Below the pieces are notes generated by a model, which was not told where the DNA came from, ran no database searches, and worked only from the letters and a program-made list of their open reading frames with translations. A program made the translations under genes and the position numbers. A stretch of DNA of 64,000 nucleotides. It comes from Escherichia coli (GTDB taxonomy: Bacteria; Pseudomonadota; Gammaproteobacteria; Enterobacterales; Enterobacteriaceae). Every line of letters starts with the position of its first letter. The stretch's first letter is position 1. The stretch is taken from NCBI RefSeq assembly GCF_044324875.1, contig NZ_CP172185.1. One strand, written 5' to 3'. Positions 27,513 to 41,964 of this stretch are shown one piece after another.

Positions 27513-27545
27513 GGCCGCCATGTGGCGGCCTGAATTATTTTTTGT
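27513..27545. terminator. Hairpin (ggccgccatgtggcggcc) followed by a T-run at the yjiA 3' end, overlapping the 3' end of the convergent antitoxin-like gene
   Basis: Inverted repeat plus tgaattattttttgtt directly read. Confidence 0.5.
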
Positions 27546-27837
27546 TCTGATCGCGCAGCATCGCTTCACGTAAAATTGCGTTCAGGCGAGTTTGATAGCC
27601 TTTACCTGGTCGCTTCAACCATTCCATCACATCAGCATCAATACGCACCGAAGCCTGAGTTTTCAATGGCCGATAAAACTTACCGCGTTCTGCGTTAGAC
27701 CATTGCTCATCGCTGGAAGGTGGGATATCGCTGTAATCAATCTCTTCGTCGGATTTATTCGCCAGCGCCTTCAGTTCGGCCTCATGTTGCACATCGAGTG
27801 TAGAGGAGGTCCCTCGTTTATGTTTAACCATGCTCAT
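27535..27837 (-). CDS. BrnA-like antitoxin-family protein (DUF4415/COG3514-like)
   Basis: C-terminal pattern ...SDIP...ERGKFYRP...VRIDADVMEWLKRPGKGYQTRLNAILREAM typical of BrnA/DUF4415; start chosen at the internal ATG preceded by a GAGGAG Shine-Dalgarno (100 aa) rather than the 122-aa track ORF. Confidence 0.6.
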   Translation of the reverse strand: MSMVKHKRGTSSTLDVQHEAELKALANKSDEEIDYSDIPPSSDEQWSNAERGKFYRPLKTQASVRIDADVMEWLKRPGKGYQTRLNAILREAMLRDQNKK

Positions 27838-27975
27838 AGCGACTCCTCTCTTTACGATCTGCTTTTCGTGCACTGATGATTCGAATGTTGGAAATAGCAT
27901 CACGTTTTAGGAAAAGATGGGGAAGTTGATATGAAAGGGCTGGATGGCAACATTGGGACACCATCCAGCACTTAT

Positions 27976-28710
27976 TCAAACCTGATAGCAATCCACCAAA
28001 AATGCCATCATTTCACTGGCATCTTTGCTGTGATAAAAGCGCACCATTTTGCTGTTGAACTCCAGCGCACGAGCTGCGGGTACACTAATTGGATTGTAAC
28101 CGTGGCGCATTAACCAGCCGTTCATCATATGGCGACTGGTACGCTTGTTGCCATCAAAGAAAAACTGAAAATAAGCACCAAATAAAAACATTGCCAGCGC
28201 CCCTTCGAACGGTGGCATCTCTTTTATTTGTGCCACACCTGCGGCGAATATTCGATTCAGTTCAGGTGCACCTGCTTCAGTGGCTGGTGGAAAATGGGTG
28301 CCCAGTTCACCGAGATGAACGCGCGCATTGTAATGCAACTCTTCACCTTCGCCGCGAAAAACGCCCCACTCCAGCGCCTCATTACGCGCAATAATGCCGT
28401 TAAGCAACGTGAACGTTTTCTTATCAAGATCGAAACGCCCGGATTGCACAAGTTCAATCAGTTTTTTTGCGCTATCTGCCAGGTTCAACACCTGCTCAGT
28501 ATCACTGACCTTATGCCCGCCAACGGTGACGCCATCGAGCAGCGTTTTAACTTCAACAAAGGTATAGGGGTTATTTTCCAGTTGCGCGGCATCCCAGACA
28601 AACCCTGCCATATGCGTTTTGAAGGTAAACAAGGCCGCGCGCGTACCGACAATTTGCATCGCCGGGATGGCATTTGCATTCCAGCTCAGGTCCAGTAGTT
28701 TGGTTGTCAT
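27976..28710 (-). CDS. Fic/Doc-fold protein with non-canonical active-site motif QFFFDGNKRTSR (Doc-like xFxDGNKR, His replaced by Gln)
   Basis: Motif comparison with Fic HPFx(D/E)GNGRxxR and Doc HxFx(D/N)(A/G)NKR; AAGGA ribosome-binding site upstream. Confidence 0.55.
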   Translation of the reverse strand: MTTKLLDLSWNANAIPAMQIVGTRAALFTFKTHMAGFVWDAAQLENNPYTFVEVKTLLDGVTVGGHKVSDTEQVLNLADSAKKLIELVQSGRFDLDKKTFTLLNGIIARNEALEWGVFRGEGEELHYNARVHLGELGTHFPPATEAGAPELNRIFAAGVAQIKEMPPFEGALAMFLFGAYFQFFFDGNKRTSRHMMNGWLMRHGYNPISVPAARALEFNSKMVRFYHSKDASEMMAFLVDCYQV

Positions 28711-28753: not shown

Positions 28754-30853
28754 TTAAACCATCGCGTTATCCATCTGCTTTTCAAATGCCTGACGAATTA
28801 ATCCCATCACATAAGGAAGCTCAGAAAGATCGCTGAAACCTACTTCAACATCGCCATTGCCCCAACGGCCTATATCTGTGACATCTTTAGCCATACATTT
28901 TGGGTCAACCAGTTCATGAAATGGCATATTTAGTGATAAACGTAAGCGACTTTTTTGCGGCACCACATCAACAAAATTCGTCTCCGCTTTGAAGGCAACA
29001 TAGAGCTTAAATATTTCTCGCGTAACCCCAGCGTCCAGCGCCATAACGGCATCAGAAAGGCTGTCAAAAAGTACGCGGATATGCGTACCTTCTTCAAGTT
29101 GTGGGAAATCAGCAAGGACATATCCCGTTCCTCGTTCAACGACAGTGCGATAACGAGCCAACACGTCTTCCGAAAGTTTGGGGATCGCCCAGACGTCTAT
29201 TGCCAGCTCGGCCAGACGTTCCGCTCTCTTTTGTATCGCTGCACGATCCCATATTTCACATTGCCCTAACCCCGTGTTCAGGCGTAATGGACTTTCCTTA
29301 AAGCCACCTTTTATATCTCGCTTCTTCGCAAATGGACGGTCGCTGTAGCTTGAGTTATAGCCAGTTAACGTTAAATTACCCAACGTATGGAGCCACTTTT
29401 TATGGATTCGCTTCCATTCCGGACCAAGGTCATCGCGCCACTTCGCCGATAAATTAGGGTTCTGCGGCATGATATGTTCAATCGTATAAGTGTCAACATA
29501 GGCCCGTTCTTTACGATCGTGGTTTTCAAATCTACGTAGCCAATAGCTGCGATTACGGAAGTTGTAGAGGTCGCGAGTTTTCAGTTCACGTTGAAATTCA
29601 TCATCATCCGGGAAACGACGGTAGGAAGGCAGTTCCAGCAAATGTGCCGCAATGCTCTCCAGATAACGCTCTTTATCCAGCACTTTGTAAAACGTGGCGA
29701 AGGTTTTAGTAAATGAGTTAGTGGGAATGGCACAGACTGCGCGCCGGAAGATATACGACTCAATTAAACGCGTGGCACTTAAAAAATCCGCGGCAGAAAG
29801 AATTCCCTGTTTATAGTCATGATAAAGCACCAACAGGAACGGCCAGGCAGCATCGACTTTCAGCTCGCGTAGATCCTGAAATGCCATCTTTAAGGTTTTA
29901 TCCTTTTCGCTATCCAGCGCCATCGCACAAAAATAGTCAGCAAACGTACGAATATCCGCAACCAGCGCCCCCATCCCGCGATCCATCACTCCTGGTTTTC
30001 GCGCATAGCGTTTAAAGGCTTCATAGACATCACCAATTCGCGGAATCTCACCTGTTTTTACCGTCAGATAATTACGCATAAAACTGTCGAAATAGTCAGT
30101 GTATCCCTTCTGACCAAACGCCAGCTCCATGGGCCGCGAGTAATCGTCGTACAGTTGGCTTTGATGTTCTGGCTCCAGCCCCATCAGAACATAGTTGCGA
30201 ACCAGATCCGCCTGACTCAGCGCTTTTCCTGTTGAGTTCATGCTTTCGAAGATTAGTTGCGGATTATCCTGACCGCGATTCAAGGCGACATCCACAATCA
30301 GCAGTTTGGAAAGTCCCTGACATAACGCGGTGAAATTGCCGTGGAGTTTGCCTATTTGCTCATGGAAAAACTCAAAATTCTCTTTCACGCGTAGAGAGCA
30401 ATTTTCTGCCAGCGGTTTTTGTCTAATCAATGCCAGCAGGCTTTCTCTGTCCGTTTGCGTGAGCAGTAACTTAAAACCACGCTCGCCCGATTCATACGGA
30501 TTGAGCAGATAATAGTTTCGTAATTTCATGGCGGAGAAACCATCCATCACCTCGTCATCGCCAAGATGTCTGGACAACGCTTCCAGCAATAACATCGCCG
30601 TTGTCAGGCGTTGCTGACCGTCAATCACCAGTAATGGCGAAATCCCCGAAACCTGATATATGCCCTGTTCGATATACACCACCGAGCCGATGAAATGCGC
30701 CGGGATATCATCACGCTGCCCGGCACGTATTACATCGTCCCAGAGCTGGCGGCACTGTTCCTCTGACCATGAATAAGTACGCTGATAAATGGGAATAACG
30801 AATTGCTGAGAGCGTTTTAGAAAATCGAGTAATCGGGCTTCGGTGGCTTTCAT
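28754..30853 (-). CDS. GmrSD-like type IV (modification-dependent) restriction endonuclease, DUF262 (ParB-like NTPase) + DUF1524 (His-Me finger nuclease)
   Basis: N-terminal DGQQR motif (LLVIDGQQRLTT), C-terminal HIMPQNP His-Me-type motif; 699 aa; AGGAG ribosome-binding site. Confidence 0.7.
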   Translation of the reverse strand: MKATEARLLDFLKRSQQFVIPIYQRTYSWSEEQCRQLWDDVIRAGQRDDIPAHFIGSVVYIEQGIYQVSGISPLLVIDGQQRLTTAMLLLEALSRHLGDDEVMDGFSAMKLRNYYLLNPYESGERGFKLLLTQTDRESLLALIRQKPLAENCSLRVKENFEFFHEQIGKLHGNFTALCQGLSKLLIVDVALNRGQDNPQLIFESMNSTGKALSQADLVRNYVLMGLEPEHQSQLYDDYSRPMELAFGQKGYTDYFDSFMRNYLTVKTGEIPRIGDVYEAFKRYARKPGVMDRGMGALVADIRTFADYFCAMALDSEKDKTLKMAFQDLRELKVDAAWPFLLVLYHDYKQGILSAADFLSATRLIESYIFRRAVCAIPTNSFTKTFATFYKVLDKERYLESIAAHLLELPSYRRFPDDDEFQRELKTRDLYNFRNRSYWLRRFENHDRKERAYVDTYTIEHIMPQNPNLSAKWRDDLGPEWKRIHKKWLHTLGNLTLTGYNSSYSDRPFAKKRDIKGGFKESPLRLNTGLGQCEIWDRAAIQKRAERLAELAIDVWAIPKLSEDVLARYRTVVERGTGYVLADFPQLEEGTHIRVLFDSLSDAVMALDAGVTREIFKLYVAFKAETNFVDVVPQKSRLRLSLNMPFHELVDPKCMAKDVTDIGRWGNGDVEVGFSDLSELPYVMGLIRQAFEKQMDNAMV

Positions 30854-31137
30854 GAATGACTCCTGTCAAATTGCGCTGGCAAACGGTGTCATTATGCTGC
30901 GAATAAAAAATAAAAGTTAGCGTCTTTGTTTCTGCAAAAATACCATTCCAGGATAAATCAAAATATATTAAGAAACACCTCAAAACGCATTCATTAGAAC
31001 AATTAATATTTTCAATTCATATTTATAACGCATTGAAAATGATCGTGTTTTTGATCATCACAGCAATAGTTTGATATAACAAAGCATTCACTTCACATTG
31101 AATATCTCCCTCTTTTTCAGGGCAAGGAATGCTTTTT

Positions 31138-33483
31138 ATGTCATCAACTAATTTCAGTCAGATTGCAGCCTTCCTGTGGTCTGTCGCCGACCTGTTACGC
31201 GGCGATTTTAAACAATCACAATATGGGCGAATTATTCTCCCTTTCACTCTTCTTCGTCGTCTGGAATGCGTACTCGAAACAACGAAAGACGCGGTCATTG
31301 CCGAGGCGCAAAAAGTAAAAGCCATGAAACTGCCGGAGGAAGCCCAGGAGAAAATGATCCTGCGGGCGACTAATGGCCTCACGTTCTTTAATGCCTCAGC
31401 GATGGATCTCAGCAAAATGGGGCAAAATGGCATACAGGACAACCTGGAAAACTACATCCAGTCGTTCTCTTCGGATGCCCGCGAAATTTTCGAACACTTC
31501 AAGTTCAGCGAGTTTGTCGGACAGCTGGCGGATGCGAACTTGCTGTTCAAAGTGGTGCAAATATTCGCTAAAGCAGATTTATACCCGGAGCACGTCACCA
31601 ACCACGATATGGGGCTGGTGTTTGAGGAGCTGATCCGCCGTTTTGCCGAGAGTTCAAACGAAACCGCCGGGGAGCACTTTACCCCGCGTGATATCGTCAA
31701 TCTGACCACCTCGCTGGTGTTTTTCGATGATGATGATGCGCTCAATAAAGACGGCATCATCCGCACCATTTACGATCCAACGGCAGGAACCGGCGGCTTT
31801 CTCTCCTCCGGCATGGAGTACGTCCATAAACAAAACCCCAATGCCGTGATGCGCGCGTTTGGTCAGGAGTTAAACCCGGAATCCTACGCCATCTGCAAAG
31901 CCGACATGCTGATTAAGGGCCAGGACGTCAGCCTTATCAAACTCGGCAATACCCTTTCCAACGATCAACTCCCCGCAGAAAAATTTGATTACATGCTTTC
32001 TAATCCACCTTTCGGCGTGGACTGGAAAAAGATAGAAACCGACATCAACAACGAGCACAAACTCAAAGGTGCTGATGGTCGCTTTGGCCCCGGCCTGCCC
32101 CGCGTCTCTGACGGTTCGTTGCTGTTTCTGCTGCACCTGATCAGCAAAATGCGCGATGCCAAAAGCGGTGGCGGGCGGATCGGCATCATTCTTAATGGTT
32201 CCCCATTATTTACCGGCGGCGCGGGCAGCGGTGAAAGCGAGATCCGCCGCTACATTCTGGAAGCGGATTTGCTGGAAGGCATTATCGCCCTGCCCACCGA
32301 CATGTTTTACAACACCGGTATCGCTACCTATGTTTGGGTGCTGTCCAACAAAAAAGCGCCAGAACGCAAAGGCAAAGTCCAGCTTATCGACGGCAGCAAC
32401 CTGTGCGGCAAGATGCGTAAATCGCTGGGGTCAAAACGCAATATTCTCGGAGACGAGGATATTGGTTTAATCACCCGCACGTTTGGCGATTTCGAACCCG
32501 TTGCCACCACTACGCTTGCGGCGTTAGGCCTGGAGAAAGCACCCGAACAAAAATCCAGCCGGGGACGCCAGCCCGCAACAACCAAAACCGAGGCGGCAAA
32601 AACTTTTGCCAGCAAAGTCTTTCACAGCACCGAGTTTGGCTATCGTCGCATCACCGTTGAGCGCCCGTTACGCCTGTCGGCTCAGATAAGTGATGACGCC
32701 ATTGCCACATTACGTTTTGCGCCGAAGCCGTTTAACGCTCCGATGGCGCAACTGTATGACGCCTTTGCTTTCCAGTGGCAGGACGGTCATTACGGCGACT
32801 TAACAGCGGTAGAAAGTGAAGCCCGCGCCATTCTTAAAGCCGATTTTAGCGAGCTGAAAGAGAAGCAAATTAAAGATCTGCTCGACAGCAAATTATGGCT
32901 GGCCCAGCGCGGGTTAATGGAAAAAGCGCGGCGTATTCAGGCGGCGATGGGTATGCAGGCGGGCGGCAAAGACACCGTTAGCAATGACTTTAATCAGTTC
33001 CAGTTGACGCTGAAAGAGGCGTTCAAAACCGCAGGCGTGAAGCTGGATGCGAAAGAGAACAAGCAGTTTATCGATGCTATCACCCGCAAAAACCCGGACG
33101 CCGAGCCGGTAGTCAGCAAGGTACTGAAAGAAGCGGCCCAACCGTTGTACGGCGCGTTTGAGTACCACGGAAAGGTTGTGGAGTTTGAGCCGGATGGCGA
33201 CCTGCGTGATAACGAGAATGTGCCGTTAAATCCGGCGGTATCTACCAGCGAGTTGATCGAGGGTTACTTCAAAGCAGAAGTATTGCCGCACGTCGCGGAT
33301 GCGTGGATTAACGCCGATAAGCGCGATGCGAAAGATGGGGATATCGGGATTGTGGGGTATGAAATTCCGTTTAATCGCCATTTTTATGTTTATCAACCGC
33401 CAAGGCCGCTGGAGGAGATTGATGCGGATCTGGATGCAGTAAGCGCTGAAATTATGAAACTGTTGCAGGAGGTACATTCCTGA
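31138..33483 (+). CDS. hsdM: Type I restriction-modification system methyltransferase subunit HsdM (unusually long, ~781 aa)
   Basis: N6-adenine MTase motifs ([10 protein letters not shown] motif I, NPPFG motif IV); canonical HsdM N- and C-termini; start placed at the ATG 9 nt downstream of AAGGAA. Confidence 0.9.
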
Positions 33484-34772
33484 TGGCAGGGTTAAATAAA
33501 TATCAGGCGTATCCGGAGTATAGGGATTCTGGGGTGGAGTGGATCGATGCAATCCCTTTTCATTGGGAAGTGCTACCAACATTTTCTCTATGTGAGGCAT
33601 CGACGAAGAAAAATATCGATGGAGCAGAAAACAATGTGCTCTCATTGAGTTATGGAAAAATTATTCCCAGAGATATAGAAACAAACTTCGGGCTTTTACC
33701 AGAGTCATTTAATACTTATCAAATCGTTGAAAATGGCGATATTATTTTAAGATTAACTGATCTACAAAATGATAAAAACAGTTTACGCGTAGGATTAGTC
33801 AAACAAAAAGGGATTATTACATCTGCATATTTAAAACTCAATTCACAAGGAAGTATGCTATCCGAATATTTATATCGCCTACTTCATTCATATGATACGA
33901 CTAAAGTTTTTTATGGCATGGGAGGAGGGCTGAGACAATCAATGAAATTTGAGGATTTCAGAAGATTGCCCTTACTGCTTCCATCGAAAAACGAACAGGG
34001 AAAAATAATTGATTTCCTCGACCACGAAACAGCAAAAATCGATAACCTGATCGAAAAACAACAACAACTTATTGAACTACTGAAAGAAAAACGTCAGGCA
34101 GTGATTAGCCATGCGGTGACCAAAGGGCTAAATCCTGATGTGCCGATGAAAGATTCTGGGGTTGAGTGGTTGGGTGAAGTTCCGAAACACTGGCACATAT
34201 GCAAGTTAAAATGGTTTGCTAATTTGAAAAGTGGTGATTTTATAACCAGCAATTCAATAGAACCAGAAGGAAACTATCCTGTTTATGGTGGAAATGGATT
34301 AAGAGGATATTATTCTCATTTTACACACAATGGTGAATATGTTCTTATTGGTAGACAAGGTGCTCTTTGCGGAAATATAAATTACGCAATTGGAAAATTT
34401 TGGGCTTCAGAACATGCTGTTGTTGTCACCCCAAACGAAAGAGCTGTTACAATATGGTTAGGAGAATTATTAAGAATAATGAACTTAAACCAATATTCAG
34501 TTTCTGCTGCACAACCGGGGCTTGCGGTTGAAAGAATTACTGATTTATATATTCCAATCCCACCATATCAAGAGCAAATAAATATCGGAACTTATATATC
34601 TAAATATATTTCTCTAGATAAAAAATTGATTGAGCATAGTACAGATAATATTGAACTCCTAAAAGAACGCCGCACCGCCCTTATCTCCGCCGCCGTCACC
34701 GGCAAAATCGACCTACGCAACTGGACCGCGCCCATCCCCGAAGCGGAAACACCCACGGAGGTCAGCGCATGA
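33483..34772 (+). CDS. hsdS: Type I R-M specificity subunit HsdS (two target-recognition domains)
   Basis: Duplicated conserved segments (DSGVEWIDAIPFHWEV / DSGVEWLGEVPKHWHI) flank two variable AT-rich TRDs; start overlaps the hsdM stop (TGATG). Confidence 0.9.
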   Translation: MAGLNKYQAYPEYRDSGVEWIDAIPFHWEVLPTFSLCEASTKKNIDGAENNVLSLSYGKIIPRDIETNFGLLPESFNTYQIVENGDIILRLTDLQNDKNSLRVGLVKQKGIITSAYLKLNSQGSMLSEYLYRLLHSYDTTKVFYGMGGGLRQSMKFEDFRRLPLLLPSKNEQGKIIDFLDHETAKIDNLIEKQQQLIELLKEKRQAVISHAVTKGLNPDVPMKDSGVEWLGEVPKHWHICKLKWFANLKSGDFITSNSIEPEGNYPVYGGNGLRGYYSHFTHNGEYVLIGRQGALCGNINYAIGKFWASEHAVVVTPNERAVTIWLGELLRIMNLNQYSVSAAQPGLAVERITDLYIPIPPYQEQINIGTYISKYISLDKKLIEHSTDNIELLKERRTALISAAVTGKIDLRNWTAPIPEAETPTEVSA

Positions 34773-37700
34773 GCAACGACATAACAAAAGAGATCAACCT
34801 GCAAAACGACATCATCGCGCAGATGGCAGAAAAAGGCTGGATTGTCGGCAAAGGTGACGGCTACGACCGGGAACGAGCACTATACGCACAGGATACCTTA
34901 AACTTCGTACAAACCACCCAACCGCAAGAGTGGGAAAAATTCGCCCGCGTTTACCCCAACGACACCGAGCGCCATTTCCTCGACGCACTGGTCGCGCAGC
35001 TTAAAAAAGCCGACAGCAACGCCACCGATATTCAGTCGCGCACCAGGGGTACGCTCGGCGTACTTCGCCACGGCCTGAAAATCCGCAATGCCCGTTTTTC
35101 GCTGTGCCAGTTTAAACCGGAACATAATCTCAACCCGGAAACGCTGGCGCGCTATCAGCAGAATATCTGCCGCATTGTGCCGGAACTGATCTACAGCCCT
35201 TATGCCTCAAATAGCGTCTTTGCAGAAACGGGCGTGAAAGCCAAAAAATGGCGCATCGACCTGGTGCTGTTTATCAACGGCCTGCCAATTGCCACGCTGG
35301 AGCTGAAATCCGAATTCAAACAGGCGGTGCAGAACGCCATTGCGCAGTATAAAAAAACCCGCCTGCCGAAAGATCCCGCTACCAATAAGCCCGAACCGCT
35401 GCTGACCTTCAAGCGCGGGGCGCTGGTGCATTTTGCCGTCAGCCAGTATGACGTTTATATGACCACCAAACTCGTGGGTGACAGCACCTTCTTCCTGCCG
35501 TTTAACAAAGGCACCAAAGATGGTGGTGCAGGCAATGAGATCCCCGAAGATACCCACCGCTACGCCACCGATTATCTGTGGAATGAAGTACTGCTGCCGG
35601 ACAACTTATTAAAAATCCTCGCCAGTTTTGTCCATTTGCAGATTGAAGAAAAAGAGGAGTGGAACGGGCTGAAAGCGAAGAAAGAGAGCCTGATTTTCCC
35701 GCGCTATCACCAGTGGGATGTAGTCAACAAACTGCTGGAGGCCGCGACGGTCGAAGGCACCGGCCATAAATACCTGATCCAGCACAGCGCAGGTTCCGGA
35801 AAGTCGAACTCCATTGCCTGGACCGCCCACCAGCTTTCTCGTCTGTACGACGCAAACGGGGAAAAACAGTTTCATTCTGTTATCGTGGTGACGGACCGCA
35901 CAGTGCTGGACGACCAGCTTCAGGACGCCATCTGGCAGTTCGAGCACGCCGACGGCGTGGTCGGGCGCATCAATAATAGAGAGGGCGATGGCTCTAAATC
36001 GGAAAAGCTCGCCAACGCGCTGGAAAACTCGCAACCGATTATTATTGTCACCATCCAGACGTTCCCGTTCGTATTGAAAGCTATCGAAAACAGTGTCAGC
36101 CTGAAGCAGCGTAAATATGCGGTGATTGCCGACGAAGCACACTCCTCGCAGAGCGGTTCTACCGCCCGTCAGCTTAAAGAAGTGCTGATGAGCGAAGAGA
36201 TGGATGATGACGTGGTACTGTCGTCAGAAGATATTCTGGATGCGACCATCGCTGCACGGAAAGGCAGCAGTAACCTGAACTACTACGCCTTTACCGCCAC
36301 GCCAAAATCCAAAACCCTGGAACTCTTTGGTCGCTGTCCGCGTCCCGATGAGCCGGCCTCAAAAACCAATAAACCTGAGGCCTTCCACGTCTACTCCATG
36401 CGCCAGGCAATCGAAGAAGGCTTTATCCTCGACGTGCTGAAAAACTACACCAACTACAAAGTGGCGTATCAGTTGCTGCAAAAGCTGGAAGACAAGGACC
36501 GCGAAGTCGACAGCAAAAAGGCAAAGATAAAGCTCAACCAATGGGTGACACTGCACGACCACAACATCTCGCAGAAGGTGAAGGTGATTGTGGAGCACTT
36601 CCGCAAACATGTGATGCACCTGCTTGGCGGCCAGGCTAAAGCGATGGTGGTCACCAGTTCACGCAAAGCCGCTGTGCGCTACAAGCTGGCGTTTGATAAA
36701 TACATTAGCGAGAACAATTACCAGAAAATCAGCGCGATGGTGGCATTTTCCGGGGAAGTTGAATTCCAGGAAGGCGACCATAACAGCCTGGCATTGTTAA
36801 AGCAGAAATTTACTGAAATAAACATGAACCCCGGCCTGAAAGGGCGGGATATGCGCAAAGCCTTCGACAGCGATGATTATCAGGTGATGTTGGTCGCCAA
36901 TAAATTCCAGACCGGTTTTGACCAGCCAAAGCTGTGCGCGATGTACGTGGATAAACCCCTCGGTGGCGTCGAGTGCGTGCAGACACTCTCCCGCCTGAAC
37001 CGCACCTATCCGGGCAAAGCGGAATCGGGCACTTTTGTCCTCGATTTTTATAATGATCCGGACGAGATCCTCGGCGCATTCCAGCCCTATTTCCAGACGG
37101 CGGAACTGACCGATGTCAGCGATCCGCAGCAGGTATTCGATCTGTTTGAAAAACTGCGCGCCACGCAGATTTTTCAGTGGCATGAAGTCGAGCAGTTCTG
37201 CGAGGCGTACTTCATCAAAAATAAATCGAATGCGGCGATCAGTAATATCTGTAAACCGGCGGTCGAACGCTGGAAAAAGCGTTATCTGATGGCAATAGAC
37301 GCCTATTTGACCGCCAAAGAGATGTTCGAGCGCACTAAAAAAACGGGCGATACGGTGTTAATCACCAATGCGGAAAACAGTTTTAAAGCCTGTAAGCAGG
37401 AGAAAGATCGTCTGGAGATTTTCAAGAAAGATCTCGGCAGCTTTGTTCGCTTTTATGAGTTTATGTCGCAAATCGTTGAGTACGATGACAAGGATCTGGA
37501 AAAGCTAAGCCTGTTTGCCCGTCATCTGCGTCCGCTGCTGCATGAGCAACGTCTGGAAGAGGATGAAATTGATCTCAGTAATGTGGAGATGAGTCACTAT
37601 CGTTTATCGAAAATCCATGAGCAAGATTTACGCTTACAGGAAGAAACGTCTGACTATACGCTGGATGCAAGTAATGATATTGGTACGGCAAAAGCGAAAG

Positions 37701-38032
37701 ATAAAAAAGAGGAGTTTTTATCGCAGGTGCTTTCTCGGATGAATGAATTATTCATTAGCGACCATTTGACCGACAAAGATATGATCAGCAATGCTTTTGC
37801 GGTGTATAACAAAATAACTGAAAATGAAAATGTTATGACACAAATTAAAAACAATCCGCCAGAACAAGCGATTCTTGGTGATTTCCTCCAGGCAGTTGAT
37901 AATGCTGTAATGGACAGTAATGACGCTCGGCAAGAATTTATGTTGCAATATTTATCCGATCCAGTTCGGGCAAAGGGCTTTGCTTATCTGATGTTTGATA
38001 TGCTCACGGGGAAAATTGCTTTGCCAACATAA
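34769..38032 (+). CDS. hsdR: Type I R-M restriction subunit HsdR (SF2 helicase/endonuclease)
   Basis: Walker A (SAGSGKSNS) and DEAH box (IADEAHSSQ); 1087 aa; ATGA overlap with the hsdS stop. Confidence 0.9.
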   Translation: MSNDITKEINLQNDIIAQMAEKGWIVGKGDGYDRERALYAQDTLNFVQTTQPQEWEKFARVYPNDTERHFLDALVAQLKKADSNATDIQSRTRGTLGVLRHGLKIRNARFSLCQFKPEHNLNPETLARYQQNICRIVPELIYSPYASNSVFAETGVKAKKWRIDLVLFINGLPIATLELKSEFKQAVQNAIAQYKKTRLPKDPATNKPEPLLTFKRGALVHFAVSQYDVYMTTKLVGDSTFFLPFNKGTKDGGAGNEIPEDTHRYATDYLWNEVLLPDNLLKILASFVHLQIEEKEEWNGLKAKKESLIFPRYHQWDVVNKLLEAATVEGTGHKYLIQHSAGSGKSNSIAWTAHQLSRLYDANGEKQFHSVIVVTDRTVLDDQLQDAIWQFEHADGVVGRINNREGDGSKSEKLANALENSQPIIIVTIQTFPFVLKAIENSVSLKQRKYAVIADEAHSSQSGSTARQLKEVLMSEEMDDDVVLSSEDILDATIAARKGSSNLNYYAFTATPKSKTLELFGRCPRPDEPASKTNKPEAFHVYSMRQAIEEGFILDVLKNYTNYKVAYQLLQKLEDKDREVDSKKAKIKLNQWVTLHDHNISQKVKVIVEHFRKHVMHLLGGQAKAMVVTSSRKAAVRYKLAFDKYISENNYQKISAMVAFSGEVEFQEGDHNSLALLKQKFTEINMNPGLKGRDMRKAFDSDDYQVMLVANKFQTGFDQPKLCAMYVDKPLGGVECVQTLSRLNRTYPGKAESGTFVLDFYNDPDEILGAFQPYFQTAELTDVSDPQQVFDLFEKLRATQIFQWHEVEQFCEAYFIKNKSNAAISNICKPAVERWKKRYLMAIDAYLTAKEMFERTKKTGDTVLITNAENSFKACKQEKDRLEIFKKDLGSFVRFYEFMSQIVEYDDKDLEKLSLFARHLRPLLHEQRLEEDEIDLSNVEMSHYRLSKIHEQDLRLQEETSDYTLDASNDIGTAKAKDKKEEFLSQVLSRMNELFISDHLTDKDMISNAFAVYNKITENENVMTQIKNNPPEQAILGDFLQAVDNAVMDSNDARQEFMLQYLSDPVRAKGFAYLMFDMLTGKIALPT

Positions 38033-38096
38033 AACACGTTGATAGCCGGGGTCGCACTTTCTACCCCGGCCATATTGTTTACAATAAGGAATAGCT

Positions 38097-38810
38097 ATGC
38101 TGAAGATGATTAAAGATTTTAAATTCAAAAAATACATTAAAAAATTACGTGAAGAAGGTTTGTTTTTTTATGTTTCTTTCGGTTTTATATTTACATTGTT
38201 AATGGAAGTTGATAATCAATTACCATACTATCTTCAACAAGACTTCTTCTTTTATACACTTATAGGATTTATGCCAATCAATATATTCTTTGTTTTGATT
38301 TGCACAAATGTATTTTTCAATGCCGCCCACACACTTATTTCACCTTATAAAGGTCAAAGAGTTGGTGAGAAATTTCTCTCTGAACTTGATAAAAGAACGC
38401 AACAAATTGGCTTTATTATTTCATTTATATGTTTTGGCATGACATTGTTTTGTGCTCTGGCGTGGTTGCTGTTTTTTGAGATGAATAATGAAAGTTACTA
38501 CGCAAAATATACATTAGATTTTTTGGCTGTTTTTATCATTATGATTATGTTTTCTTCAGCAGTTAATCCAGTCATGAGAAGAATATTCCAAAAAATGAAG
38601 GGATCGGACTCACATGGAAATTCAAAAATAATTCTTATAATTATAATCATTGTGTTATTGCTATTATTGCCAATTGCGTACATTATCAATAAAAATAAAA
38701 CAATTGAAATCAATATTAAGAAAGAAACTTATCAGCAAATAAAAGAAAAAACAAAGATGAAACCAGAAGATTATATCAAAAAATTGATTGCTGATATTAA
38801 ATTCAACTAA
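38097..38810 (+). CDS. Low-GC multi-pass membrane protein of unknown function (237 aa)
   Basis: Strongly AT-rich ORF with several hydrophobic segments and a Lys-rich C-terminus; AAGGAA ribosome-binding site; 64 bp downstream of hsdR. Confidence 0.55.
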   Translation: MLKMIKDFKFKKYIKKLREEGLFFYVSFGFIFTLLMEVDNQLPYYLQQDFFFYTLIGFMPINIFFVLICTNVFFNAAHTLISPYKGQRVGEKFLSELDKRTQQIGFIISFICFGMTLFCALAWLLFFEMNNESYYAKYTLDFLAVFIIMIMFSSAVNPVMRRIFQKMKGSDSHGNSKIILIIIIIVLLLLLPIAYIINKNKTIEINIKKETYQQIKEKTKMKPEDYIKKLIADIKFN

Positions 38811-38886
38811 TATCTATATGTACCCTGGTTTCTTCCTGGGTACATATAAAAAGTTAATATCCTGATTTATTCTCAACATCCCCCCA

Positions 38887-39051
38887 TCACTCCACATCCT
38901 CCCTGCGTAACCCAATATCCCTCAACCGCTCATCACTCATCTGCTGTAACACCCGCCGGGCCTGCATTTGCCGCCGCCAACGCCTCACTGCCTGCCAGAG
39001 TTGCACAAGTCCAATAAACGGTGCTTTAGCTTTGTTTTCATGAAATTCCAT
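38887..39051 (-). CDS. yjiS: DUF1127 small protein YjiS (54 aa; below the ORF-track length cut-off)
   Basis: Manual translation of the minus strand gives MEFHENKAKAPFIGLVQLWQAVRRWRRQMQARRVLQQMSDERLRDIGLRREDVE. Confidence 0.7.
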   Translation of the reverse strand: MEFHENKAKAPFIGLVQLWQAVRRWRRQMQARRVLQQMSDERLRDIGLRREDVE

Positions 39052-39227
39052 CGACTGCCTCCTCATCTTTCAGAGGCTTCATCATCCGTCTTCTGGCAGT
39101 TCACAATACAGATGCAAATATTAGTTTTATTTAACATACAGACAGGTTAAAACAGCATCTGCATCCGGTTTTTTAGCCTCATCTGTACCGGTTTTTCTCT
39201 CTGTATGGTCCACATAAGGAATACAGC

Positions 39228-40640
39228 ATGACGCGTTATCAACATCTGGCGACTCTGCTTGCCGAGCGGATTGAGCAGGGGCTGTATCGTCACGGGGAGA
39301 AATTGCCGTCGGTGCGCAGCTTAAGTCAGGAGCACGGCGTCAGCATCAGCACCGTGCAGCAGGCGTATCAGACGCTGGAGACGATGAAGCTCATCACCCC
39401 ACAGCCGCGTTCGGGTTATTTTGTCGCACAACGTAAAGCCCAGCCGCCAGTGCCGCCGATGACGCGTCCGGTGCAGCGCCCGGTGGAAATTACCCAGTGG
39501 GATCAGGTGCTGGATATGCTGGAGGCGCATAGCGACAGTTCCATTGTTCCGTTAAGTAAAAGCACGCCGGATGTCGAAACGCCCAGCCTGAAACCGCTGT
39601 GGCGGGAGCTAAGCCGGGTGGTGCAGCATAATCTGCAAACCGTTCTCGGTTATGACTTGTTAGCCGGTCAGCGAGTGTTGCGAGAGCAGATTGCCCGCCT
39701 GATGCTCGACAGCGGCTCGGTGGTCACTGCCGATGACATCATCATCACCAGCGGCTGCCATAACTCGATGTCGCTGGCGTTAATGGCGGTGTGTAAACCG
39801 GGCGATATTGTCGCGGTCGAATCCCCCTGTTATTACGGTTCGATGCAGATGCTGCGTGGCATGGGCGTGAAAGTGATTGAAATCCCAACCGATCCAGAAA
39901 CAGGCATCAGCGTTGAAGCGCTGGAACTGGCGCTGGAACAGTGGCCGATTAAAGGCATCATTCTGGTGCCAAACTGTAATAATCCGCTGGGATTTATTAT
40001 GCCGGACGCGCGCAAACGGGCCGTTCTCTCTCTCGCTCAGCGTCATGATATTGTGATTTTTGAAGATGATGTCTACGGCGAACTGGCAACGGAGTATCCG
40101 CGCCCGCGGACCATTCATTCCTGGGATATCGACGGGCGAGTGCTGTTGTGCAGCTCATTCAGTAAAAGTATTGCACCTGGCCTGCGCGTGGGTTGGGTCG
40201 CACCGGGGCGTTATCACGATAAACTGATGCATATGAAATACGCCATCAGCAGCTTTAATGTACCGTCCACGCAAATGGCGGCGGCAACGTTTGTGCTGGA
40301 AGGTCACTATCATCGCCATATCCGGCGGATGCGGCAGATCTATCAGCGCAATTTGGCGCTTTATACCTGCTGGATACGGGAATATTTTCCCTGCGAAATC
40401 TGCATTACGCGCCCGAAAGGCGGATTTTTACTGTGGATCGAATTGCCTGAACAGGTCGATATGGTCTGCGTCGCACGGCAGCTATACCGCATGAAAATCC
40501 AGGTGGCGGCAGGCTCGATTTTCTCAGCTTCCGGCAAATACCGTAATTGTCTGCGCATCAACTGCGCTTTGCCGCTCAGCGAAACCTATCGCGAAGCACT
40601 GAAGCAAATTGGCGAAGCCGTGTATCGGGCAATGGAATGA
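39228..40640 (+). CDS. yjiR: MocR-type regulator (GntR HTH fused to PLP aminotransferase-like domain)
   Basis: 470-aa ORF with N-terminal GntR wHTH and aminotransferase class I/II-like C-terminal domain. Confidence 0.85.
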   Translation: MTRYQHLATLLAERIEQGLYRHGEKLPSVRSLSQEHGVSISTVQQAYQTLETMKLITPQPRSGYFVAQRKAQPPVPPMTRPVQRPVEITQWDQVLDMLEAHSDSSIVPLSKSTPDVETPSLKPLWRELSRVVQHNLQTVLGYDLLAGQRVLREQIARLMLDSGSVVTADDIIITSGCHNSMSLALMAVCKPGDIVAVESPCYYGSMQMLRGMGVKVIEIPTDPETGISVEALELALEQWPIKGIILVPNCNNPLGFIMPDARKRAVLSLAQRHDIVIFEDDVYGELATEYPRPRTIHSWDIDGRVLLCSSFSKSIAPGLRVGWVAPGRYHDKLMHMKYAISSFNVPSTQMAAATFVLEGHYHRHIRRMRQIYQRNLALYTCWIREYFPCEICITRPKGGFLLWIELPEQVDMVCVARQLYRMKIQVAAGSIFSASGKYRNCLRINCALPLSETYREALKQIGEAVYRAME

Positions 40641-40882: not shown

Positions 40883-41964
40883 TTAGTACTCGATCCATGG
40901 ATCGCGCTTGCTTTCAGGCAAGGGCTGATCTAATGCCTGCATTTGCTCTGCCGAAAGTCCGGTATATCGTTGTATCCATTCAGGATCCGCCCCATTCTGC
41001 AACAACAATCGGAGGAGGCTCCGTTCCCCTTCTACTTTCCCTTCTTTCCTCCCCCTCTCCCTTCCCAACAGCCATCCATCATTATGAATTCGCTCTGCAA
41101 TCGTCATTATTCGCTCCCTTTGTTGTGGCATTCGACTGGTTAGTTCGCTGATAAACTCTTTAAAACGCGCTTCATCGCCAGTCAGTAAAATGTAATTTAA
41201 CAGCGCAGTTATCTGGCTGTCATTAGTACACTCTGTAACCAGTAATACTACCAGTTGGTCGATAAGCCCCATCAGATCGCGCTGGCGAATATGCTTTTGG
41301 ATCAACTCCAACAGGGCGACTCTGCGGTGCTGCACAATCTCGTCGTCTGGCACGACAGTGATATCCACCAGCGGGAACGCGGCGGTATATACTCGTCATA
41401 CTTCAAGTTGCATGTGCTGCGACTGCGTTCATTCACCCCAGTCACTTACTTTTGTAAGCTCCTGGGGATTCACTCACTTGTCGCCTTCCTGCAACTTGAA
41501 TTATTTAGAGTATAAAGCTTCCGTGCGGTGGTCGGGTCAGCAAATTCGTCCAGCCAGCACAGGGACCAGGGGTAAGGACTACGGCTACCGTGATAAAACA
41601 GCATCGGGATGACCAGCGGTAGCGGCCGGCGTTTATCATGCTCGATATGGCGCTGCATCACCGCCATGGAATATCGCATCAGGCGAAAGGCCATATGGAT
41701 ATCCTCGCGGCTCTGATGTTCAATCACTACGTAAATATAACCATCACCTTCACGGGTCTTTACCGACCACAGAATATCAGAGTGTAGCGCCCGCAATTTT
41801 TCATCGACAAAGCTGGCGGATTCCAGTTTTAAGCTGTCGAGATCGCACAATTCACGTAAATCTATTGGTAAGTGGATCTCCATAAAATCCCGCGCGGTGT
41901 CAGGGTGGGTGAGAAAGGATTTAAATAATGCGTCATGCGGCGTACTGGTCGTGAAGTTTGTCAT
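40883..41964 (-). pseudogene. rpnD: Rpn-family (YhgA-like, PD-(D/E)XK) recombination-promoting nuclease gene disrupted by a frameshift
   Basis: N-terminal part (41470..41964) and C-terminal part (40883..41368 and its upstream in-frame extension) lie in different frames on the same strand; matches the yjiP/yjiQ split in K-12. Confidence 0.75.

Follow-up and report, generated by a model that had tools for sequence, protein, structure and literature searches.

Several small membrane proteins are known to act in phage exclusion or abortive infection, including Imm and Sp of phage T4, SieA of P22, gp15 of HK97, Ltp of Streptococcus phage TP-J34, and RexB of lambda. Among these, Ltp shows that an extracytoplasmic domain can have a DNA-binding-type fold and yet work in exclusion. 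Type I hsd loci can also contain genes that are not part of the restriction-modification (R-M) system itself, such as prrC in EcoprrI and symE next to the EcoKI-type hsdS, both of which encode cytoplasmic RNases. A third point of reference is the interval between yjiA and yjiS, known as the immigration control region (ICR), which is an exchangeable cassette of restriction genes (PMC2481252, PMC3874165). The ICR is among the best-studied enteric defense loci, yet its last gene has had no family, literature, or assigned function. Here we describe this gene in a 64,000-nt stretch of Escherichia coli DNA (contig NZ_CP172185.1, referred to in full as the window), where it forms an open reading frame of 237 amino acids (ORF237, 38097..38810 on the + strand, stop codon included, with an ATG start). 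ORF237 represents the Salmonella STM4522 family in E. coli, and its product is predicted to combine a five-helix membrane core with a C-terminal domain that resembles a ribbon-helix-helix (RHH) fold. What is new here is this putative RHH-fold module in an unprecedented membrane setting, carried by an unstudied resident of a classic defense locus.

The likeness to the described systems is partial in each case. Like Imm, Sp, SieA, gp15, Ltp, and RexB, ORF237 is a small inner-membrane protein without enzymatic motifs in a defense context, but it has no sequence or fold similarity to them (PADLOC, PHROGs, Foldseek) and it is chromosomal rather than prophage-borne. Like prrC and symE it is a nonrestriction gene beside hsd in the same orientation, but its product is a membrane protein, and the association with hsd does not hold from one genus to another. 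The closest relative by far is STM4522 of Salmonella LT2, annotated as a "putative inner membrane protein," and judged by similarity and position ORF237 is its E. coli counterpart. The two proteins share 37% identity over 231 residues (BLASTP, E 5e-45) as well as length, architecture, and domain order, and this full-length similarity is combined with a shared AT-richness and a shared place in the last slot before yjiS at the edge of the ICR. What lies upstream is different: STM4522 has symE (STM4523) on one side and yjiS (STM4521) on the other, with mrr and a type IA hsdR-M-S set farther upstream. It thus comes after the symE of an hsd locus of type IA (EcoKI-like), while ORF237 comes after the hsdR of an M-S-R type I locus. 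They also differ in frequency. Of 5426 complete E. coli genomes, 114 (about 2%) carry ORF237, and E. coli K-12 lacks it, while the Salmonella clusters hold 772, 1398, and 1007 member sequences, with one of them on at least 1000 contigs, which indicates that STM4522 is common in Salmonella.

The first-pass annotation had called ORF237 an orphan, which the match to STM4522 contradicts, as do relatives in other Enterobacterales and in Vibrio. The family is nevertheless small. With ORF237 as query, phmmer exhaustively searched a set of 1.8 billion representative proteins and returned only 12 matches, with relatives of the same length down to 25–31% identity, while word-indexed and profile searches added few further relatives and reached homologs at 21–26% identity. 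A scan of genome contigs found 3 loci only. In E. coli and Escherichia fergusonii the gene always follows an hsdR of the type found in the window. A second clade comprises Salmonella enterica, where the SARB27 annotation equates the gene with LT2 locus STM4522, and Pseudocitrobacter faecalis forms a third with the gene after symE, arranged as in Salmonella. Metagenomic enterics (41–43% identity) make up a fourth, in one of which the gene is flanked by the 3' end of mrr and by an aldehyde dehydrogenase gene. In Enterobacter and Pantoea (21–26% identity; L009 1385-2484, L010 1007-2106, L020 9537-10636, and L027 7328-8705) the gene has an AI-2E-family transporter on one side and mmuP/mmuM on the other. 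The start of the Enterobacter-type homolog overlaps the stop of a GFA-family (PF04828) gene; the Pantoea locus lacks the GFA gene and keeps an unannotated protein of about 149 amino acids upstream of the homolog. The last clade is Vibrio parahaemolyticus (about 21–25% identity), whose homolog P0018 sits in an island (L011 3441-13890) with a VspR-like gene, an M78 peptidase/helix-turn-helix pair, a Multi_ubiq/ThiF(E1)/BubE operon, a homolog of the PADLOC dGTPase (E 1.6e-53), several unannotated small genes, and a split 5'-nucleotidase gene. Searched at the DNA level, the E. coli genomes lacked the distant Salmonella allele, and a metagenomic allele used as query found only the same 114 E. coli loci. 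A literature search found no paper mentioning STM4522, and likewise none for three WP accessions.

The membrane core covers amino acids 22–197 (38160..38687, +), where hydropathy, the helices of an AlphaFold2 model, and family-wide loop charges predict five transmembrane (TM) helices at about residues 22–38, 44/50–80, 104–127, 139–159, and 177–197. Kyte-Doolittle hydropathy with a 19-residue window gives four segments above 1.6, with TM5 peaking at 3.49; the fifth segment, residues 22–38, comes to about 1.56 by hand calculation, under the 1.6 threshold. The AlphaFold2 model, built from a 15-sequence alignment (mean pLDDT 73, pTM 0.60), has helices at residues 10–38, 44–57, 60–80, 85–129, 133–169, and 175–196, an unstructured stretch at 197–208, and helices at 209–219 and 223–233. 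The core is preceded by a basic amphipathic segment (amino acids 1–21, 38097..38159, +) with 8 K/R, which is predicted to be cytoplasmic by the positive-inside rule and in which residues 1–17 have low pLDDT. Comparison of the full model with AFDB50 using Foldseek returned only uncharacterized relatives (E. coli, Salmonella, and Citrobacter farmeri, with Pseudomonas and Serratia at E 5e-4 to 3e-3) along with weak matches to Yip1/DUF4149-type bundles, and no known fold could be assigned to the membrane core from this search. The Ile/Leu run KIILIIIIIVLLLLLPIAYII is present in the translation.

The most conserved part of the family, and the most informative feature of the protein, is a domain that the first-pass annotation passed over. 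Amino acids 198–237 (38688..38807, +; NKNKTIEINIKKETYQQIKEKTKMKPEDYIKKLIADIKFN) are predicted to form a strand followed by two helices, and since the strand carries alternating hydrophobic residues we suspected an RHH fold. RHH domains dimerize through an antiparallel two-stranded sheet formed by one strand of each strand-helix-helix unit, and this is the arrangement modeled for the C-terminal 40 amino acids. A construct joining two tails into a linked dimer (17-residue Gly/Ser/Thr linker; 12-row alignment) yielded the strand-helix-helix pattern twice, with a domain pLDDT of 80–89. When family tails were searched against Pfam, 1 of 11 matched a NikA-like profile (5.8e-5), and weak matches were seen in one member each to RHH_7 (1.8e-3) and RHH_1 (3e-3), and to FitA-like RHH and CopG_antitoxin. 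The member with these matches is probably the Vibrio tail, while the tail of the window protein matched no RHH profile in Pfam. A hidden Markov model of the tail searched against PDB sequences gave chance matches only, such as KPEEY in MDA5. Taken together, the RHH-like fold of the tail is reasonably supported as a prediction. Compared with the RHH superfamily (Arc/MetJ/CopG, and especially the single-chain RHH2 proteins TraY and AvtR), the tail is instead fused to a five-helix membrane protein and is probably periplasmic, and its loop reads KPED where the superfamily usually has a G-x-S/T N-cap. A literature search found no relevant membrane-anchored RHH protein and none in which a membrane core of five helices ends in an RHH domain, and we know of no described protein with this combination.

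The side of the membrane on which this tail resides was assigned from charge counts. Across the family, loops 82–103 and 160–176 are strongly basic while loops 39–49 and 128–138 are acidic or neutral; in the Enterobacter/Pantoea clade, loop 82–103 contains 7 K/R and 0 D/E in three of four sequences and 5 and 0 in the fourth. By the positive-inside rule this places the N-terminus and the basic loops in the cytoplasm and the tail in the periplasm. We lean toward a periplasmic tail with restrained confidence, because a four-TM model with the tail inside scores well once the weak first span is left out and the Lys-rich tail is included in the count. Such a topology could make ORF237 a membrane-tethered DNA-binding protein with a cytoplasmic RHH domain, serving as an autoregulator, an antitoxin-like repressor, or a means of capturing incoming DNA at the inner leaflet. 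RHH folds are to our knowledge almost always DNA-binding, TM1 is the weakest hydrophobic segment (under 1.6), the E. coli tail is basic (11 K/R to 6 D/E in the last 40 residues), and what appears to be the Vibrio tail matches NikA-like and CopG-type profiles. Summed K+R with the tail counted also favors it, at 251 in and 127 out for the four-TM model with the C-terminus inside versus 215 and 162 for the five-TM model. However, the most basic loops, 82–103 and 160–176, would then be periplasmic, the tails of other clades are neutral or acidic, the tail in the window is without an RHH profile match, and the outward-facing residues of the strand vary across the family and include D/E. In addition, the beta-strand begins only about four residues after TM5. 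A tether this short would hold the face of the sheet against the membrane and leave no room for duplex DNA, so canonical binding in the DNA major groove would be unlikely on either side. Sequence-specific DNA binding by the tail sheet is therefore doubtful, and we regard a tethered DNA-binding protein as an unlikely explanation of ORF237.

ORF237 is a genuine coding gene under purifying selection. It is annotated as a coding sequence in nearly all of the 114 carrier E. coli genomes, and pairwise dN/dS among nine Escherichia alleles (Nei-Gojobori) is 0.17–0.63, mostly 0.2–0.4, compared with 0.06–0.09 for the adjacent hsdR by the same method. Selection is uneven along the protein: dN/dS is 0.26 for codons 1–49, 0.37 for codons 50–197, and 0.04 for codons 198–237, which suggests that the tail is a functional surface, at minimum a dimerization clamp. 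Some observations could instead suggest that in E. coli the gene is a decaying remnant that retains little function, namely a frameshifted copy in E. coli strain A20, a frameshifted STM4522 homolog in S. enterica subsp. diarizonae, a split annotation in strain KE50, and relaxed dN/dS values of up to 0.63 in some pairs. Most alleles are nevertheless intact, dN/dS is below 1 throughout and lowest in the tail, and the architecture is kept at 21–26% identity, so that a remnant seems quite improbable.

The description of ORF237 given by the first-pass annotation, a 237-amino-acid, very low-GC reading frame with hydrophobic helices, an Ile/Leu stretch, and a Lys-rich tail, agrees with our coordinates, GC, hydropathy, and charges, and its observations of a good ribosome-binding site and of a position 64 bp after hsdR were also confirmed. 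A Shine-Dalgarno sequence, AAGGA (38086..38090, +), was read from the sequence 6 nt 5' of the ATG, and 64 nt separate ORF237 from the hsdR stop codon, which ends at 38032. A scan of the + strand found no sigma-70-like promoter upstream of ORF237, which makes read-through from hsdR possible. Just 3' of the hsdR stop is a GC-rich 8-bp hairpin with no U-tract (38045..38070, +; 71-nt region, dG -19.2, z -2.2) that was not scored as a terminator in the terminator scan but could possibly be a partial terminator or an RNA-stability element. A stronger 13-bp hairpin (38815..38848; dG -19.6 kcal/mol, z -5.8, with 0 of 200 shuffles folding as well) lies between the convergent stops of ORF237 and yjiS and is likely to be a terminator common to both genes, though without a clear U-tract on the + strand. 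An Rfam scan of 37500-39400 found no RNA family, and no antisense-RNA arrangement of a type I toxin-antitoxin system was found at ORF237.

The GC content of ORF237 is 0.270 compared with 0.493 for the whole window, and its GC at third codon positions (GC3) is 0.277. From this composition the first-pass annotation had concluded that ORF237 was acquired separately from the R-M genes, a conclusion that does not survive comparison with the rest of the family and the operon. All family members, in every host, have a GC of 0.26–0.36 and a GC3 of 0.23–0.36 against flanks of 0.39–0.55, and AT-richness is thus a stable family trait. The type I R-M operon is itself a compositional mosaic, with hsdS at a GC of 0.384 and a GC3 of 0.31 while hsdM and hsdR have a GC of about 0.50–0.52 and a GC3 of about 0.61, and the drop in GC begins already in the last 600 nt of hsdR. 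Since AT-richness is found across the family and in hsdS, the history of ORF237 cannot be separated from that of its neighbors by composition. This AT-richness is consistent with xenogeneic, probably H-NS-silenced DNA. More generally, a gene family can keep an extreme AT-richness as a lasting trait, and such a composition need not signal recent acquisition.

The position of ORF237 directly after hsdR (34769..38032, +) raises the possibility that it serves the adjacent type I R-M system as a dedicated accessory, perhaps by anchoring the HsdR complex in the membrane or by regulating it, and is co-transcribed by read-through from hsdR. Co-occurrence was examined with the 3' 2 kb of the window hsdR allele as probe against the 5426 complete E. 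coli genomes. This allele was found in 114 genomes, equal to the count for ORF237, and the two genes are adjacent in every cross-checked record with a gap of 64–65 nt where checked, so within E. coli the linkage looks complete. The same arrangement in E. fergusonii, the lack of a promoter-like site upstream, and the presence of only a weak hairpin after hsdR would all fit an accessory role. Block inheritance of an ICR haplotype would, however, give the same linkage, and outside Escherichia it is not kept. The upstream neighbor of family members varies by genus and can be hsdR, the symE of an unrelated type IA system, mrr, or no R-M gene at all. In S. enterica subsp. diarizonae CCUG 30040T (L019 7698-10700) the ICR has neither hsd nor mrr, symE is kept, and the frameshifted STM4522 homolog is in place; an AraC-type regulator and a RhtB/LeuE-type exporter follow yjiA in this strain. 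Co-occurrence with type I R-M, the association that the defense proposal of the first-pass annotation would lead one to look for, thus stands within E. coli and fails across genera. The varying upstream partner, together with the housekeeping setting in Enterobacter and Pantoea, argues that ORF237 is not an accessory of a restriction system, and we consider that explanation the least probable of those discussed here. A type I R-M accessory subunit was rejected as an identity on the same failure of co-occurrence with hsd across taxa. The family gene goes with the yjiS edge of the island and not with one restriction system.

We tentatively propose, from genomic context, that ORF237 is a stand-alone module of envelope-level phage exclusion or of another membrane-acting defense. 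ORF237 is a fast-evolving inner-membrane protein in the last slot of the ICR, directly before yjiS, and probably forms a homodimer of 2 x 5 TM held together by its RHH-like domains. Under this proposal it would act independently of the neighboring R-M genes, as the absence of a conserved partner (hsdR, symE, mrr, or nothing upstream) suggests. The conserved RHH-like dimer would provide an interaction surface and the variable membrane core would be the anchor or effector. The occurrence of the family in two unrelated defense-island settings, the enterobacterial ICR and the V. parahaemolyticus island, counts for this proposal, and we likewise take the selective constraint on a genuine gene, the patchy distribution (114/5426), the core dN/dS of 0.37 compared with 0.06–0.09 for hsdR, the AT-richness, and the architecture of the protein as suggestive of a defense role. 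Defense neighbors are present in Escherichia, Salmonella, Pseudocitrobacter, one metagenomic enteric, and Vibrio, and absent in Enterobacter and Pantoea. A more specific version, in which the RHH fold on the periplasmic face intercepts an incoming phage genome or the ejection/tape-measure machinery and so represents a new chromosomal class of superinfection exclusion, is in our estimation improbable. If phage exclusion is correct, ORF237 would be a single-gene, membrane-level defense that PADLOC 2.0 (2023) lacks, and the first RHH fold at the envelope known to us.

A number of observations weigh against a defense role. The wider family survey weakens it, since the Enterobacter and Pantoea homologs have no defense neighbors and the enteric ICR cases may be one inherited position rather than independent events. 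The family is tiny and purely chromosomal, unlike most mobile defense genes: tblastn found no copy among 50,697 phage records, where the single match was a misfiled Salmonella chromosomal contig, and none among 72,556 plasmid records, whereas superinfection-exclusion proteins are typically carried by prophages or mobile elements. The role put forward by the first-pass annotation, that of an abortive-infection effector or superinfection-exclusion factor, is neither backed nor contradicted by these results. PADLOC-DB 2.0 contained no family matching ORF237 at E <= 1, and PHROGs gave only matches at E >= 0.013, which we treat as noise. The topology and dimerization that the proposed mechanism draws on are predictions from shallow alignments of 12–15 sequences, and the frameshifts seen in strain A20 and S. 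diarizonae count on the same side.

A nondefense role is almost as likely as a defense role. ORF237 could be an accessory inner-membrane protein for an envelope, stress, or small-molecule function, or an orphan protein of the bacteriocin-immunity type, that is found at the ICR edge by descent while restriction cassettes are exchanged beside its slot. The position next to yjiS is fixed in Escherichia, Salmonella, and Pseudocitrobacter whatever lies upstream, the gene is common in Salmonella, and it has no phage, plasmid, or PADLOC link, all of which would be expected under this explanation. The Enterobacter and Pantoea homologs, which lie among housekeeping genes and in Enterobacter overlap the GFA gene, also favor it. 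On the other hand, a gene present in only 2% of E. coli genomes is dispensable, the Vibrio homolog is again in a defense/mobile island, and an unameliorated GC3 of 0.23–0.36 in all hosts together with fast evolution is atypical of a core physiological gene. Should ORF237 prove not to act in defense, it would be a caution against assuming that the genes of defense islands are defense genes. With these points on both sides, the stand-alone defense module remains our working proposal.

The statement of the first-pass annotation that no family could be recognized was borne out by the family libraries, where PADLOC gave nothing and NCBIfam, PHROGs, and Pfam gave subthreshold matches to hydrophobic segments. 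The NCBIfam matches (MAG0110, FliL, and DsrJ) were far under their cutoffs and the Pfam matches consisted of DUF898 (7.8e-4) and others from hydrophobic segments, all of which we treat as noise. RefSeq records disagree on the name of the protein WP_000916454.1, with some giving "MFS transporter" and others "hypothetical protein" (L003 12065-12778 NZ_CM183654.1; NZ_AP046542.1). An MFS transporter was rejected, with MFS_1 at E = 1.8 in Pfam and a protein of five TM helices and 237 amino acids, compared with the 12 TM helices of the MFS fold. A holin was also rejected, with a PHROG holin match at E = 0.43 and no endolysin or phage context.

The placement of a membrane protein within a defense island, as the first-pass annotation described it, is correct, and the island is the ICR with a GmrSD-like type IV enzyme and a type I R-M system. 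Its genes run in the order GmrSD-like enzyme (699 amino acids, 28754-30853, -), hsdM (31129-33483, +), hsdS (33483-34772, +), hsdR, ORF237, convergent yjiS, yjiR, a split rpn gene, mdtM, and yjiN. The yjiS gene (DUF1127; 38887..39051, -) is the framework gene that marks the ICR edge (PMC2481252, PMC3874165), and ORF237 is the final gene of the variable cassette. Identity between yjiS of E. coli (38887-39051) and of Salmonella (L026 12741-12905) is only 57%, unusually divergent for orthologs of E. coli and Salmonella.

In the annotation of the near-identical record L001, the stretch upstream of the GmrSD-like gene (27535-28710, -) corresponds to a Fic-family gene (244 amino acids), a BrnA antitoxin, and a truncated BrnT toxin; these are more defense or toxin-antitoxin cargo of the same island. 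Beyond yjiS, the gene for an Rpn-family (yjiP/yjiQ, RpnD-like) recombination-promoting nuclease is split into reading frames at 40883-41368 and 41470-41964 (-), and its equivalent is annotated as frameshifted in L001 and intact in the related record L002. Farther along, a reading frame of 696 amino acids (47604-49694, +) is found between yjiL/ytiA and yjiK in another strongly AT-rich stretch, with a GC of about 0.31–0.34. Its equivalent in L001 is annotated as a "pentapeptide repeat-containing protein," and its absence from L002 and L003 suggests that it is another strain-variable insertion.

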